A stretch of 64,000 nt of DNA from a virus. Below the pieces are notes generated by a model. It saw nothing but the letters and a program-made list of their open reading frames with translations, searched no databases and was not told the origin of the DNA. The DNA is taken from IMG/VR virus record IMGVR_UViG_3300046319_000183. One strand, written 5' to 3'. The position numbers were made by a program, and so were the translations under genes. Shown piece after piece: positions 15,963 through 20,511 of this stretch; positions within the stretch are counted from its first letter, which is position 1, and every line of letters starts with the position of its first letter.

Positions 15963-16339
15963 AACTTTTTAATGAAAAAGACAATTGGACAAAAGCTGAA
16001 GTAAGAGGGGCTTTAGCTTCTATGAAACTTAAACATGAAAGAGTTGTAACAGAAGTAAGAGTAGGAGATGTTTATACAGTTACAGGATTTAGACATCCAG
16101 CTGTAGTAATAAAAAAAAAGAATGGTATTTGTTATTCTTTAACTTTGACTACATCAGAAGATTGTGCTAGTATATTATGTCCTTGCGATTCTAGATTTTT
16201 TCCAACTTCTTTTGTAACAATATCTTTACATAGAGTTCCAGAAGAATTTGTTCTTCAGAATTTTATAAATCCCTATGAAAATAAGGCTCATTTATTTAAA
16301 ATTAAAAGATTATTTAAACAATTTTTAACAGAACTATGA
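15932..16339 (+). CDS. hypothetical protein (start uncertain: 15866 or 15932)
   Basis: ORF track. Overlaps the helicase 3' end. Confidence 0.4.
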   Translation: MQAKTREELIELFNEKDNWTKAEVRGALASMKLKHERVVTEVRVGDVYTVTGFRHPAVVIKKKNGICYSLTLTTSEDCASILCPCDSRFFPTSFVTISLHRVPEEFVLQNFINPYENKAHLFKIKRLFKQFLTEL

Positions 16340-17202
16340 AAGAACTTACAGAAGTCTTTAAAAAAACAAAGTATCCTGATGGTACTTTTTATGCTACAAA
16401 ACTCGAAGACATTTCACATGGGATTTTTAATGTGTATTTAAACTCCTACGAAGACTTATGGTTTTTAGCTCAATGTGCAAGTTTAATTGATGCTTCAAAA
16501 AGTATCATAAAAATTAATTGCATGATAGACCAACAAGCAGACAGACAGTTTGAACCAAATGAAAGTTTCAATCTTAAGATTGTTGCAAATTTTTTGAATT
16601 CTTTGAACTTTGGTCAAGTTATAATTTTTCATCCTCATTCAGATGTAACTCCTGCTTTAACTAATAACTCAGTAATTTTGGATAACTCGCTGTTTATAAA
16701 GCAAGTATTAGACATTATTACCAGCCCTCAAGCTTATGATGAAGAAGGAAAAAAAGTACCTTTGACTATGTTTGAAGGAGATTATACTACTAGAGATACT
16801 AAAAACTTAATTTTAGTGTCTTCTGATGCTGGTGGAAACAAACCTTTGCAGAAACTTTGTGACAAACTTGATTGGAAAGGAGAAACATTTTCAGCTTTGA
16901 AAGCTAGAAAATATGTTCATGGAAAATCTGAACTTACACAAGAAGTTTTAAGGGACAATTTTGAAGGTAAAGATTTACTCATCGTAGATGACATGTGTTT
17001 ATATGGAGGAACATTTATAGGACTTGCTAAACTTTTTAGAGAAAGAAATATAGGTAAATTGAACTTAGCAATAAGTCATTTAACTGTCCCTAATCCAAAT
17101 CCTTTGTTGTTTGAACTATATGACAAAATTTTTACTACAAATTCAAAACAATTAGAATATGTAGTTCCTTATCAATTTCAAGATAAACTTGTAATTTTAT
17201 GA
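16336..17202 (+). CDS. ribose-phosphate pyrophosphokinase (PRPP synthetase)-like protein, possibly ADPR-PP synthetase (Adps)
   Basis: PRPP-binding motif LLIVDDMCLYGGTF. Prs-like NLILVSSDAGG. Length 288 aa. Confidence 0.6.
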   Translation: MKELTEVFKKTKYPDGTFYATKLEDISHGIFNVYLNSYEDLWFLAQCASLIDASKSIIKINCMIDQQADRQFEPNESFNLKIVANFLNSLNFGQVIIFHPHSDVTPALTNNSVILDNSLFIKQVLDIITSPQAYDEEGKKVPLTMFEGDYTTRDTKNLILVSSDAGGNKPLQKLCDKLDWKGETFSALKARKYVHGKSELTQEVLRDNFEGKDLLIVDDMCLYGGTFIGLAKLFRERNIGKLNLAISHLTVPNPNPLLFELYDKIFTTNSKQLEYVVPYQFQDKLVIL

Positions 17203-17588
17203 CACTTGTAGAGATTTTTTCAATAATCTTTATACATTTTGTAGCAGATTTCATATGTCAAGATGAAGAGTGGGCTTTAGGTAAGTCAAAAAAATTTGAA
17301 CCTTTAATTACTCATACAGTAGTTTATTCAGCAGTATGGTTATGGGTAGGATTAGCTTTTATGTTTAATGGTAAATTTAAACCTTTAGATGTAGCTGCTT
17401 TTGCTTTTATAACTTTTGTAGCACATACAATAACTGATTATTTTACTTCTCGGTTAGTTGCAGAAAAGTTTGATAAAAAAGAACTAGGTTCTGCTGTTCC
17501 AAATTTTGGAGCATTTACTTATATAGGGGCGGATCAAGTTTTGCACTATTTACAATTATTTTTAACTTATTATTACTTATGCCATTAA
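17199..17588 (+). CDS. hypothetical membrane protein
   Basis: Multiple hydrophobic helices. Confidence 0.4.
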   Translation: MTLVEIFSIIFIHFVADFICQDEEWALGKSKKFEPLITHTVVYSAVWLWVGLAFMFNGKFKPLDVAAFAFITFVAHTITDYFTSRLVAEKFDKKELGSAVPNFGAFTYIGADQVLHYLQLFLTYYYLCH

Positions 17589-17875
17589 TATTTTTAGGTT
17601 CTCTAATTATCTTAATGTGGTATATATCACATTATCAGATAAAACCAGACTATGAAGACTATGAAATAGTAGAAATTCAAAGTCTAAATAGAAAATCTTT
17701 AGTTATGTACAGCCAGTATTCTATTTTCTATACTATTAGAATTTGTGGTATTTTATCATACAAAGAAAGATTTAGAAATGAAGTAGATGCTTATTTATTT
17801 CCTTCAAAAGAGCAAGCATTGTCTCAATATAATCACCATATAACCCAGAAAAATGAGCATATTCACAGCACCTGA
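17579..17875 (+). CDS. hypothetical protein
   Basis: ORF track. Confidence 0.3.
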   Translation: MPLIFLGSLIILMWYISHYQIKPDYEDYEIVEIQSLNRKSLVMYSQYSIFYTIRICGILSYKERFRNEVDAYLFPSKEQALSQYNHHITQKNEHIHST

Positions 17876-18314: not shown

Positions 18315-18738
18315 ATTTTTAAAACCAAATGCTCAATTTAAGAGATTGTGGGAAGAGTACCATAAACATAAAGGACTTATTATAGCTGTAGATTTTGACT
18401 CAACATTATATGATTTTCATAAAAAAGGAGAAACCTATGAAATGATGTTTCAACTAGTTAGAGATTTACATAAAATAGGATGTCACATTATTATATGGAC
18501 TGCAAACAAAAATACAGAGTTTATAAAAACATATCTAGCAGAAAATAATATTCCATATCATTCGATAAATGAGGAAAGTCCTGCTGGCCTAAAGTTTTTA
18601 TACAATTCAGACTGTTCTTTAATACCTAGAAAGCTATATGCGAATGCTTATCTCGATGACAGAGGAGGACTCATACAAACATATGCAGAACTAGAATTAC
18701 TAGTTTGGCTATTACTCAATAAATATACTTATGTTTAA
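18307..18738 (+). CDS. HAD-superfamily hydrolase (small)
   Basis: Motif I IAVDFDSTL (DxDxT). Confidence 0.5.
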   Translation: MDEFLKPNAQFKRLWEEYHKHKGLIIAVDFDSTLYDFHKKGETYEMMFQLVRDLHKIGCHIIIWTANKNTEFIKTYLAENNIPYHSINEESPAGLKFLYNSDCSLIPRKLYANAYLDDRGGLIQTYAELELLVWLLLNKYTYV

Positions 18739-18768
18739 CTTATTTAAAAACAAAAATTCCAAAAGATA

Positions 18769-20511
18769 ATGGAAAAACTAGAAACAATGTTTCGCATAAA
18801 TCCTTTGTATGAAGCAGATGGTTACAAACCAGGGCATAAAGAAATGCTTGCTCCTGGAACAAACAAAGAGTACTTTACATGGATTCCAAGAAATCTTAAG
18901 TACATGCCAAAAAGCATAACAAAAATCATGTCTGCTGGTCAACAATTTACTTGGAGATACATTCATTCAGCTTTTTCTGAATGCTTTTTCTTTACAGAAA
19001 AAAGAAAAACTTTTAGAAAAGAAACTTTAGCTTGGCATAAACATAAAAATCAAGCTTTAAAATTTGCTGAAGATTTAAGTTTCTACTTTGGTATGCCTTA
19101 CGATGGAGAACATTTTGCTGCACTTTGGGATTTAGGTTATTTGCCTGTAAAAATCAAAGCTTTGCCAGAAGGTATGTTTACTCCTCCAAATATTCCACAT
19201 ATGACAGGTATCAATACTGTTGATGGATATGCTTGGTTAGGTTTGTTCCTTGAGACTTTGGTATCAAAGCTTTCGTGGCAAATGCCAATTGCTGCTACTC
19301 TTGGATTTGAATTTAAGAAAAATGCAGTAGAATGGGTAAACAAAACAGACCCTGAAAATTTATGGCTTGCAGATTACATGTGTCATGATTTTCATTCAAG
19401 AGGAGGTAATCCATTTACCTCAATAGCAGTAGGTCTTGGTCATGCTTTGTCAAATTCTGGTTCTGATACACTTAATGTAATTCCAGCATCTCGTTACTAC
19501 TATGATGTTGCAGATGATAAAGTTCTTATCAATTCAGTTTTGGCTTCAGAACATTCTGTTACTTGTACTGGAATATTTTACTATGAAGCTAAGCTAAAAG
19601 ATGGTAAACTAGACCAAGAGATTAAAGACTATTATGCTTTTGATGCTCCTTCTGAAGGTTCAGTCGAAAATCCCGACTATCTTGCTATAGCAGAACTCTT
19701 GAATCTTAGAGATTGGCTATTGAAATTTCCTAAAGGCATTTTGTCAGTAGTTTCTGATACAATGGATTTATGGAAGTTGATTACGCATATTCTGCCTAGA
19801 TTGAAATCTTTGATTATGGCTAGAGATGGAAAACTTGTAATTAGACCTGACTCTGGAGACCCTGTAGAAATTACTTGTGGAATAGGAAATAGAACTGAAT
19901 ATACTAAAGATGGTATTACTACCTACTTTAGAGATGAAGCTATGACTCAAGAAATCTCTATAAATGAAAAGAAAGGAGTAATTGAGTTGCTTGCTGATAT
20001 TTTTGGTACAGTTGAGACTTCTACTGGCTATAAACGCTTAGACTCGCATATTGGAGCAATCTATGGTGATTCAATAACTTTAGAAAGACAAGTACAAATT
20101 TACTCTAGACTTGCAAATAAAGGCTTTGCTGCCACAAATATTGTTCTTGGCATAGGTTCATACACTTATGTGTATATGACAAGAGATACAGCAGGTTTTG
20201 CAGCAAAAGGAGCTTGGTTTCAAGTTCAAGAAGTAAAAGAACCTACTGGTTATGGAACATATCCTGGTTTAGAAACAACTTCTTACAATATCTACAAAGA
20301 CCCAGTAACAGATGATGGGACTAAAAAGTCTTTGAAAGGAATGTGTGCTGTACATAACGATTATGAAGAACCAGAAGGTGACACCTTAATTGTTAAACAA
20401 GAATGTACTGAAGAAGAAGAGGCTCAAGGTCTACTACAAGTAATATATGAAGATGGAAAATTCTTCAACCAGCAGACATTTGAACAAATTAGAGCAAAAA
20501 TAAACAAATAA
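18769..20511 (+). CDS. nicotinamide phosphoribosyltransferase family protein (NadV/NAMPT-like, or Namat)
   Basis: N-terminus EADGYKPGH matches the NAMPT tDSYKvtH segment. Length 580 aa. Confidence 0.65.
   Translation: MEKLETMFRINPLYEADGYKPGHKEMLAPGTNKEYFTWIPRNLKYMPKSITKIMSAGQQFTWRYIHSAFSECFFFTEKRKTFRKETLAWHKHKNQALKFAEDLSFYFGMPYDGEHFAALWDLGYLPVKIKALPEGMFTPPNIPHMTGINTVDGYAWLGLFLETLVSKLSWQMPIAATLGFEFKKNAVEWVNKTDPENLWLADYMCHDFHSRGGNPFTSIAVGLGHALSNSGSDTLNVIPASRYYYDVADDKVLINSVLASEHSVTCTGIFYYEAKLKDGKLDQEIKDYYAFDAPSEGSVENPDYLAIAELLNLRDWLLKFPKGILSVVSDTMDLWKLITHILPRLKSLIMARDGKLVIRPDSGDPVEITCGIGNRTEYTKDGITTYFRDEAMTQEISINEKKGVIELLADIFGTVETSTGYKRLDSHIGAIYGDSITLERQVQIYSRLANKGFAATNIVLGIGSYTYVYMTRDTAGFAAKGAWFQVQEVKEPTGYGTYPGLETTSYNIYKDPVTDDGTKKSLKGMCAVHNDYEEPEGDTLIVKQECTEEEEAQGLLQVIYEDGKFFNQQTFEQIRAKINK

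Follow-up and report, generated by a model that had tools for sequence, protein, structure and literature searches.

A probable NARP1-type NAD+ reconstitution operon with HAD and NDT-fold accessory genes in an uncultured AT-rich phage

A stretch of viral DNA of 64,000 nucleotides (IMG/VR record IMGVR_UViG_3300046319_000183; the whole stretch is hereafter called the window) very probably carries a NARP1-type operon for the reconstitution of nicotinamide adenine dinucleotide (NAD+) in an uncultured AT-rich phage. Its two core genes, one Prs-like and one NAMPT-like, are predicted to encode the ADP-ribose pyrophosphokinase Adps and the nicotinamide ADP-ribose transferase Namat. We hold this reading of the pair with high confidence, and every NARP1 hallmark that can be tested computationally was found in it, apart from two changed contact residues in Adps. 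Judged from its sequence, the pair is a new, divergent member of a pathway that is already known, and we infer its enzymatic activities and its anti-defence role on the same basis. The genes inserted between the two are more informative than spacers, as a HAD-type protein and an NDT-like protein repeatedly accompany operons for NAD+ reconstitution. In its architecture the operon is a new variant, with a HAD gene where NARP1-AP operons have a Macro gene and with an NDT-fold enzyme that is common to NARP2 loci; a literature search found no description of NARP1 with HAD and NDT-fold accessory enzymes. NAD+ depletion is among the commonest antiphage strategies of bacteria, and of the metabolic countermeasures known so far, the NARP pathways are the principal one. 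The core pair is expected biology for a large phage, and the accessory enzymes provide two testable leads.

The Adps-like and Namat-like genes

The window has a G+C content of ~30%, and almost all of its genes lie on the plus strand. A preliminary description of this DNA had placed a Prs-like and a NAMPT-like gene in one block, and both open reading frames (ORFs) were found exactly there, in a single compact plus-strand block, with their families confirmed. The description had counted three small genes between them. The membrane protein, the NDT-fold protein, and the HAD hydrolase are indeed present, but the intervening ORFs number four, the additional one being a 98-aa ORF. The genes of the block and the two genes that follow it are listed below.

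16336–17202, plus strand: Adps-like gene, predicted ADP-ribose pyrophosphokinase with a PRPS-like fold, 288 aa (tree, residues, family scores)
17199–17588, plus strand: DUF3307 membrane protein, 129 aa (Pfam DUF3307 1.6e-9; phrog_2470)
17579–17875, plus strand: 98-aa ORF, hydrophobic at its N-terminus (predicted by gene callers in four independent contigs, L003–L006; 91% identical in the related locus L102; no family match)
17853–18314, plus strand: NDT/DrHyd-like protein, Pfam Nuc_deoxyri_tr2, 153 aa (PF15891 6e-28)
18307–18738, plus strand: predicted capless HAD-type phosphatase, 143 aa (phrog_1238 8e-25; HAD motifs; AF2 model)
18769–20511, plus strand: Namat-like gene, predicted nicotinamide ADP-ribose transferase, 580 aa (phrog_448, Pfam NAPRTase, PDB 9w5w)
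20518–21609, plus strand: AAA-type ATPase, 363 aa (Pfam AAA 1e-10; phrog_2376 1e-48)
21606–22025, plus strand: cREC domain protein (cyclic-phosphate processing receiver domain; PF20274 8e-19)

At four junctions of the block the start codon of one gene overlaps the stop codon of the preceding one, and the only gaps are 30 nt on the 5' side and 6 nt on the 3' side of the NAMPT-like gene. Given these overlaps and a largest gap of 30 nt, the genes of the block are very probably co-transcribed. Scans for promoters (46 observed, 48 expected) and terminators (5 observed, 3.8 expected) between 13 and 23.5 kb gave chance numbers and were uninformative on the operon limits. A protein of the block was found in identical form on 19 metagenomic contigs, the longest of 77 kb, with unchanged gene order. 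When the block was compared by megablast with 50,697 phage records, no match was returned, and a pattern scan that used the Adps sequence alone gave none in IMG/VR either; alignment-based scans were required.

The Prs-like protein matched phrog_619 ('ribose-phosphate pyrophosphokinase', 9e-37) and Pfam Pribosyltran, with no match to Pfam Pribosyltran_N or Pribosyl_synth. It scored 44.1 bits against the cut-off of 113 for the Prs model TIGR01251 and 21–38 bits against the cut-offs of 296–518 for the NCBIfam Prs equivalog models, and its best Prs match in the PDB reached only E 7e-5. BLASTP against SPbetaL1 Adps gave 31% identity (E 4e-19). For the latter enzyme, pyrophosphorylation of ADP-ribose (ADPR) has been demonstrated, and an assay of Prs activity gave no product (Osterman et al. 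2024, bioRxiv 10.1101/2024.02.11.579819).

We built a neighbour-joining tree (100 bootstraps) from the validated Adps proteins of SPbetaL1, FADO, Bas63, and ICP1, to which further homologues from phages, 21 relatives from metagenomes, and nine gammaproteobacterial Prs proteins were added. The phage proteins split from Prs at 100% bootstrap. The window clade was nested between SPbetaL1/FADO Adps and Bas63/ICP1 Adps (88% bootstrap), which places it within the range of sequences that proven Adps enzymes cover, and the window subclade of 22 sequences was set off from other Adps at 100% bootstrap. A grouping with bona fide Prs, which the preliminary description had raised as the outcome contrary to NARP1, was not what we found; the protein groups with Adps instead. 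The Bas62 'phosphoribosyltransferase' was tried as a further Adps reference and dropped, as it is without the Adps lysine.

The key residues of Adps have been named from structures of the ICP1 enzyme (PMC13586617). The catalytic lysine is kept (K189 in the window, K185 in ICP1, K162 in SPbetaL1), and so are the mutationally validated acceptor residues of ICP1, H121, D161, and D212/D213, which correspond to H101, D164, and D218/D219 in the window. H101 lies within a PHSDVTP motif that is common to Adps and not to Prs, where the corresponding motif is DLHAxQIQ. The aromatic adenine contacts F18 and F92 of ICP1 Adps are retained as Y13 and F72. Features shared with class I Prs/PRPS are the two-domain PRTase-like fold, the DD...GGT PP loop, and the catalytic lysine in a flexible loop or hairpin; the PP loop of the window protein, DDMCLYGGTF, is of the type found in SPbetaL1 and FADO, DDLSS[FY]GGTF. 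The protein has a short C-terminus, with 62 residues after the PP loop compared to 87 in E. coli Prs and 48–73 in the Adps and Adps-like references, and the alpha11-alpha12 C-terminal regulatory module of PRPS is missing.

The NAMPT-like protein matched phrog_448 ('nicotinamide phosphoribosyl transferase', 4.5e-131) and Pfam NAPRTase (7e-22). Its best PDB match was SPbetaL1 Namat (9w5w, 279 bits), compared to 116 bits for the Nampt of Xcc (Xanthomonas) and 99 bits for human NAMPT; for the third-best structure match, 9ke8, no source protein was identified among phages. Namat enzymes possess a 'selectivity clamp', composed of a GS-X-phi-X-phi-X-phi-TRD motif, whose aromatic X stacks on the adenine of ADP-ribose pyrophosphate (ADPR-PP), and of a longer beta1-beta2 loop giving an extra stacking residue (PMC12774641). 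The SCH signature of the window protein, GSYTYVYMTRD, has an aromatic X at positions 3 and 7 and aligns with GSFTYQYNTRD of SPbetaL1 and GSYTYQYMTRD of Bas63. Its SCL loop, PRNLKYM, aligns with PRSNKYF of FADO, NRHGKYS of ICP1, and PRSDKWF of Bas63, and K-Y is kept. NMNAT-linked Nampts have GGGLLQK or GGKLVHP instead of the clamp motif, and shorter loops.

The Nampt-like catalytic core is intact (Y15, F189, R192, D215, the catalytic His, R306, D308, G360-D361, and R399-D400), and the histidine of EHSV was aligned in the PDB comparison. Identities were 37–42% to validated Namats and 26–29% to the Nampts of phages Bhz51 and GAP32, which were defined as NARP2 by context, their genes adjoining one for an NMNAT or a Nudix protein. 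The group of Adps-linked Namats that includes the window protein was separated from these NMNAT/Nudix-linked Nampts by a 100% split (500 bootstraps).

The NARP1 operons of Bas63, SPbetaL1, FADO, and ICP1 (Osterman et al. 2024; PMC12774641, PMC13586617) have the same two families as the window, the same diagnostic residues, tight linkage, and no NMNAT. The Namat of the window, with 580 aa, is close in length to that of Bas63 (593 aa). The window differs from these references in sequence (23–31% identity for Adps, against the range for Namat given above), in having its core genes split by four ORFs, and in a Gln at the position of ICP1 Arg87. NARP2, which combines Nampt with NMNAT or the Nudix enzyme NatV (KVP40, GAP32, Bhz51), shares the NAPRTase/NAMPT-family fold and the goal of making NAD+ from nicotinamide, but the window has no NMNAT and a Namat clamp instead of the GGGLL-type loop. 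The NARP1-type composition proposed in the preliminary description therefore agrees with both the Adps clade placement of the Prs-like protein and the clamp motif of the NAMPT-like protein.

The reported absence of an NMN adenylyltransferase (NMNAT; NMN, nicotinamide mononucleotide) or Nudix gene also held for the window. A Pfam scan of window ORFs of at least 95 aa gave no CTP_transf_like or NUDIX match at E ≤ 1e-3 and no PnuC or NadR (NARP3), and tblastn of the window with two phage NMNAT/Nudix proteins returned only noise (E ≥ 0.45). The Namat gene is the fifth gene 3' of the Adps gene, 1.6 kb off and thus inside the limit of 10 genes applied to Adps neighbours, and relatives retain this linkage. 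To place the linkage in a broader context, we used the best 80 IMG/VR loci per scan, dereplicated them into clusters at 80% identity, and counted neighbours within 8 kb of the anchor gene. Namat was present in 66 of 69 Adps-anchored clusters and was the only such neighbour in 37; none had NMNAT. The Namat count agrees with the 97% linkage of Adps to Namat reported in a study that found NARP1 in ~4% of sequenced phages (Osterman et al. 2024, bioRxiv 10.1101/2024.02.11.579819). A regular-expression census of Namat motifs in the IMG/VR loci missed many genes and was left unused.

These results bear on classical salvage, the alternative named in the preliminary description, in which the Prs-like enzyme would make phosphoribosyl pyrophosphate (PRPP), the NAMPT-like enzyme would make NMN, and NAD+ would be completed by an NMNAT, either of the host or encoded in an unseen part of the phage genome. 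Public annotation of such genes as Prs and NadV, the PRPP-dependent NMN synthesis that Namat enzymes keep in vitro (PMC12774641), and the coverage of only part of the genome by the window are all compatible with it. However, the Prs-like protein failed all NCBIfam Prs cut-offs and lies inside the Adps clade, its relative SPbetaL1 Adps yielded no product in the Prs assay, the Namat clamp is present and the Nampt-type motif absent, none of the 69 Adps-anchored clusters had an NMNAT nearby, and no phage was found to encode both NARP1 and NARP2 (Osterman et al. 2024). We therefore assign classical salvage a very slight probability.

Some observations count against the NARP1 reading. ICP1 Arg87, an ADPR contact that is conserved in Prs too, is Gln67 in the window subclade, and ICP1 D216 is Leu222 in the window and Ser in SPbetaL1. 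From these changes, the window Adps may have a shifted acceptor specificity, and the Arg87-to-Gln change is the main reason why the Adps call is not rated higher. The Prs outgroup of the tree was gammaproteobacterial only, a scan of genome contigs for Prs having yielded no other group, with all members at least 80% identical to E. coli Prs, and the best 80 IMG/VR loci per scan are biased to relatives of the window. The NARP2 references had to be set by gene context because KVP40 NadV, the one NARP2 Nampt with biochemical tests, was not located in the 121–136 kb and 172–225 kb regions of KVP40. Lastly, an NMNAT could be encoded elsewhere in the genome, of which the 64-kb window is a part (longest contig 77 kb).

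A changed acceptor, brought about by the Arg87-to-Gln change and the altered PP loop, would mean that the window Adps subclade pyrophosphorylates something else than plain ADPR, for example a phosphorylated or modified ADPR, and that the HAD and NDT-like proteins belong to a modified pathway. Gln was found at the Arg87 position in all four displayed members of the 22-sequence subclade (the window, P0002, P0007, and P0100), which is itself set off at 100% bootstrap, and the accessory genes are conserved with the subclade in several loci. Nevertheless, the window Adps retains its catalytic Lys together with the acceptor residues (H/D/DD) and the two aromatic residues that contact adenine, the adenine clamp of the partner Namat is intact and fits ADPR-PP, and many members of the same Adps clade are without accessory genes, 37 of 69 clusters having Namat only. 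We consider a changed acceptor highly improbable and retain ADPR as the predicted acceptor of the window Adps.

Several side observations concern relatives of the core genes. The closest Namat in a cultured phage, with 55% identity, was that of the cyanophage Leptolyngbya phage Lbo-JY46 (L001, 7995–12204). Two genes 3' of it lies a 'PrsA' of 341 aa that also falls within the Adps clade; judged from these sequences, Lbo-JY46 probably has NARP1, annotated as PncB plus PrsA. Public phage records still label such genes Prs and NadV, and the HAD gene 'phosphoheptose isomerase'. The Namat genes of relatives are hot spots for homing endonucleases (L102, 3037–6046; L111, 4937–7908; L113, 6236–6880). 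In L102, Adps, the NDT-like protein, and the HAD protein are 88–95% identical to those of the window and Namat only 35%; this Namat gene lies between LAGLIDADG and GIY-YIG genes, with a 44-aa remnant of a window-type Namat C-terminus on its 3' side. In L111, the Namat frame is interrupted by a DUF723 gene.

The HAD-type phosphatase and the NDT/DrHyd-like protein

The HAD protein matched the NCBIfam model of the BT0820-family HAD phosphatase below its cut-off (1.5e-7; 32 bits against an equivalog cut-off of 165). The four HAD motifs (DxD, T/S, K, and DD, here D29, D31, T65, K109, and D117/D118) were invariant among 37 homologues. The AF2 model (pLDDT 91) showed a capless HAD fold, the nearest folds being BT0820 (2obb), 1xpj, PNKP-type 3'-phosphatases, and AfhF, a phage arabinose-1,5-diphosphate phosphatase that acts as a pentose-diphosphate phosphatase.

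The HAD gene is closely linked to NARP1. Among the best 80 HAD-anchored IMG/VR loci, Namat lay within 8 kb in 71 and Adps in 66, mostly adjacent and co-oriented. After dereplication, Adps and Namat occurred together in 30 of 38 clusters (79%) and NMNAT in none. Gene orders were varied: Adps-Namat-HAD in Bacillus phage PPIsBest, HAD-Namat in L111, Namat-HAD-NDT-Adps in L112, and Adps-NDT-HAD-orf-ARH-LAGLIDADG-Namat in L113. In the Adps-anchored clusters, HAD was present in 17 (25%) and Macro in 10 (14%) of 69, and no cluster had both. The Macro rate matches the 15% published for NARP1 loci (bioRxiv 10.64898/2026.01.28.702374), which supports our method.

Because the HAD gene is linked to NARP1 and was never seen with NARP2, we infer that its product has a role in the ADPR branch, and neither on the nicotinamide side nor in pyrophosphate removal. 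The lack of overlap between HAD and Macro fits a functional replacement of Adpp, the Macro-domain phosphatase of NARP1-AP. From the NARP1 linkage and the Macro non-overlap together, we tentatively propose that the HAD protein dephosphorylates a phospho-ADPR to ADPR. No mention of such a HAD phosphatase occurs in the NARP1 papers that we examined, and a literature search found no paper naming NARP1 together with HAD, deoxyribosyltransferase, or DUF3307.

Three findings weigh on the other side. The exclusivity of HAD and Macro comes from small numbers (hypergeometric p ~0.05) and from macro queries of limited sensitivity. A HAD homologue occurs in Listeria phage LP-124 (L108, 1–5203) within a cluster of RtcB, DUF1768 (NADAR), RNA-ligase, and phosphoesterase genes. 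Another occurs in Enterococcus phage ZJGS3 (L109, 2883–7553), between two PnuC-like genes and a gene for a 375-aa 'transcriptional regulator'. The latter two loci are further NAD+/ADPR-related settings of the HAD family. A Pfam scan of 240-aa HAD fusion proteins and other small neighbours gave no match. In Escherichia phage JohannJBalmer (Bas62; L098, 12868–15083), we also noted a trio of macrodomain, phosphoribosyltransferase, and HAD-like genes; its HAD has no detectable relation to that of the window, and the trio may be a different nucleotide- or ADPR-handling module.

The NDT-like protein matched an uncharacterised protein in the PDB (4mcj, 1.5e-27), and its invariant positions were E69, E95, R49/R50, and S87-K88-S89. 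The gene is linked to Adps and Namat in L102, L112, and L113, in differing gene orders. Of 55 NDT-like clusters from IMG/VR, 20 adjoin NARP1 or NARP2 genes: 13 lie by Adps and Namat, three by Nampt and NMNAT, three by Namat alone, and one by Adps alone. Two of the three NARP2-type clusters also contain a macro gene and an ATPase gene of the same AAA family as that of the window. As the family is associated with both NARP types, these data suggest that it acts on what NARP1 and NARP2 share, namely nicotinamide supply or an NAD+-derived signal.

The NDT-like family has a further link to NAD+ chemistry, as read from the domain order of one fusion. In Tunturiibacter phage Tunturi_5 (L114, 3959–7747), a 1262-aa polyvalent protein, annotated as MutT/NUDIX in its record, begins with an NDT-like domain followed by an ART-PolyVal ADP-ribosyltransferase domain, and its gene adjoins the portal gene. 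Against a specific association with NAD+ stand the remaining 35 of the 55 clusters, which have no NAD gene nearby; in a Lak megaphage, the NDT-like gene also lies away from any NARP gene.

The two accessory genes might instead be unrelated passengers, one for a phosphatase or pyrophosphatase of general function (HAD) and one for an enzyme of nucleotide metabolism (NDT-like), both having landed in a permissive early-gene region. Small unrelated ORFs are frequent in phage NARP1 operons, the majority of the NDT-like clusters lie away from NAD genes, and DUF3307 is decaying in L102, all of which would agree with such an origin. However, the co-occurrence of HAD with Adps and Namat in 79% of dereplicated clusters extends over varied gene orders and distant hosts, including those of Bacillus phages. 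Pyrophosphate hydrolysis would aid NARP2 equally, yet no HAD gene was seen together with NMNAT. For the NDT-like proteins, there is the repeated association with NARP1 as well as NARP2 and the fusion to an ART domain. A passenger status for these genes is thus distinctly unlikely, and we treat both as functional companions of the operon.

Proposed pathway and comparison with known systems

In the proposed pathway, Adps would take the beta,gamma-pyrophosphate from ATP and attach it to the free ribose in ADPR, giving ADPR-PP, and Namat would then exchange the pyrophosphate of ADPR-PP for nicotinamide, yielding NAD+ directly without an NMN adenylyltransferase. NAD+ would be restored in this way after its cleavage by host NADases of the SIR2, TIR, or SEFIR type, and the NAD+ spent by the phage's own Tpt1/KptA and PARP-like enzymes would also be replenished.

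The HAD protein would strip the phosphate from phosphorylated ADPR to provide ADPR for Adps. Candidate substrates are ADPR-1''-phosphate (ADPR-1''-P) from RES-type NADases, ADPR-1''-P from the decay of ADPR-PP or of ADPR cyclic phosphate (ADPR>P), and 2'-phospho-ADPR from NADP+. It would be a non-homologous counterpart of Adpp, the phosphatase that converts ADPR-1''-P to ADPR and counters aRES (bioRxiv 10.64898/2026.01.28.702374). In the NARP1-AP operon of Vibrio phage Gary, described in the same study, Adpp accompanies Adps and Namat, and the window likewise has an extra hydrolase in the operon. The proposed logic is alike, with phosphorylated ADPR that Adps cannot use being turned into ADPR, but the fold is HAD and not Macro. 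The window has no Macro gene next to its Adps and Namat genes or in the interval that separates them, and a separate macro-like ORF is found 20 kb away. We regard the feeding of ADPR to Adps by the HAD protein as plausible but tentative.

For the NDT/DrHyd-like protein, we predict an N-glycosidase or transferase that would act on a feature common to NARP1 and NARP2, either nicotinamide supply or an NAD+-derived immune signal; any specific substrate that might be named for it is unlikely to be the right one. A precedent for an inserted glycosidase exists in the NARP1 operon of mycobacteriophage DyoEdafos, in which RyDEP converts 2'/3'cADPR, an immune signal derived from NAD+, to ADPR for the pathway (bioRxiv 10.64898/2026.05.28.727677). 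By analogy, the NDT/DrHyd-like gene could have a comparable feeder role. The two proteins differ in that RyDEP has an RyR/R12 domain and cleaves an O-glycosidic ribose-ribose bond, whereas the NDT/DrHyd fold is directed to N-glycosidic bonds, and the NDT-like gene, unlike RyDEP, accompanies NARP2 loci too.

Such accessory enzymes have been instructive before: Adpp pointed to RES-type NADases, and RyDEP to the degradation of the Thoeris signal. The HAD protein, present in about one quarter of the sampled NARP1 loci, and the NDT-fold enzyme, present with NARP1 and NARP2, are two further candidates, and their substrates could reveal unrecognised NAD+-derived products or signals of host defence.

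Neighbouring genes and other features of the window

Two more genes outside the operon bear on the fate of ADPR derivatives.

14165–14713 (gene callers' start 14216), plus strand: Tpt1/KptA RNA 2'-phosphotransferase (PF01885 7.6e-34; phrog_5470 3e-50)
40876–41433, plus strand: macro-domain-like ORF, 185 aa, directly 5' of an RNA ligase gene (tblastn and PDB matches)

Tpt1/KptA consumes NAD+ and releases ADPR>P and nicotinamide. Its gene lies 1.6 kb 5' of Adps. In the IMG/VR loci, the 8 kb around the anchors (HAD, NDT-like, or Adps) never contained KptA, so the KptA link may be particular to this phage. The cREC gene, whose start overlaps the stop of the AAA ATPase gene, belongs to a family predicted to open ADP-ribose 1''-2'' cyclic phosphate (PMC9503650); cREC was near NARP1 genes in few IMG/VR loci only. 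The macro-like ORF had no Pfam match. With tblastn it matched Bas63_0095 ('putative phosphatase', 1.5e-17) and a Bas62 'macrodomain protein' (3e-7), and its PDB matches, BT1257 (2fg1) and 2afc at 9e-4, were over the GCG-AGG motif. On these similarities, the ORF is a candidate for a phosphatase that acts on ADPR-1''-P in the manner of Poa1p or Adpp.

RNA-repair and NAD+/ADPR genes are unusually abundant in the window (13168–15962, 21606–22886, 25287–25991, 30237–31370, and 41430–49919). They include Tpt1/KptA, cREC, an HD phosphohydrolase, a protein with a PARP catalytic domain (1.3e-21), two RNA ligases, PNKP, Thg1, a CCA-adding enzyme (PolyA_pol), and YqeY.

The operon might carry out the same chemistry mainly for housekeeping, recycling ADPR derivatives and nicotinamide from the phage's own Tpt1/KptA, in tRNA repair, and from its PARP-like ADP-ribosyltransferase, so that the NAD+ pool would not be drained by RNA repair, with defence against NADases being secondary. 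A chemically plausible route would lead from ADPR>P, made by KptA, through ADPR-phosphate, made by cREC, to ADPR, made by HAD or Macro, and on to NAD+ by Adps and Namat. The position of KptA and of cREC, the latter after the ATPase gene that directly follows Namat, is consistent with this route, as is the presence of the PARP-domain protein, the RNA ligases, PNKP, Thg1, the CCA-adding enzyme, and the macro-like ORF by an RNA ligase gene. The logic of KptA, cREC, and Macro has been set out previously (PMC9503650), the HAD homologue of LP-124 lies in an RtcB/NADAR/RNA-ligase cluster, and FADO likewise has Thg1 near its NARP1 genes.

However, validated NARP1 operons counter host NADases without such neighbours, the IMG/VR anchors are without KptA, and cREC is rare beside them. 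The NAD+ use of RNA repair is stoichiometric and probably small, and the two purposes are compatible with each other. We consider it unlikely that housekeeping is the main purpose, and favour the restoration of NAD+ after host NADase attack. The joint reading, a widespread extension of NARP1 in which a HAD feeder replaces Adpp, an NDT-fold N-glycosidase common to NARP1 and NARP2 acts on the nicotinamide side or on an N-glycosidic immune signal derived from NAD+, and the KptA/cREC NAD+ cycle of this phage is closed, is possible but rather doubtful as a whole.

The AAA ATPase gene starts 6 nt past the Namat stop and is possibly in the same transcription unit. It follows Namat in L102 too, with 93% identity, and its family (phrog_2376) recurs beside Namat or Nampt in L102, L111, and the IMG/VR loci L236, L254, L260, and L261, including NARP2-type loci. 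DUF3307 was found within a few kb of NARP1 genes in three NDT-anchored loci and three Adps-anchored clusters, and is nearly lost in L102, an 88%-identical relative. Homologues in KVP40-like Vibrio phages do not adjoin NAD genes, and a role of DUF3307 as an NAD-linked transporter was considered and found unsupported, the KVP40 homologue not being next to NAD genes. DUF3307 and the 98-aa ORF are lineage-specific inserts.

On the 5' side, the start codon of Adps is overlapped by an ORF at 15866–16339 (135–157 aa), with which the operon may begin; it has no family match and is conserved in L102 at 84% identity. Directly 5' of KptA lies a homologue of adenylosuccinate synthetase that looks truncated. 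Farther away, the thymidylate synthase (37184–38374, 396 aa) matched its Pfam model in two stretches, as would be expected if a large insertion interrupted the enzyme near its middle. ARAGORN called a tRNA-Leu (anticodon AAG) at 5583–5654 and a tRNA-like gene with a two-base anticodon call at 8712–8782.

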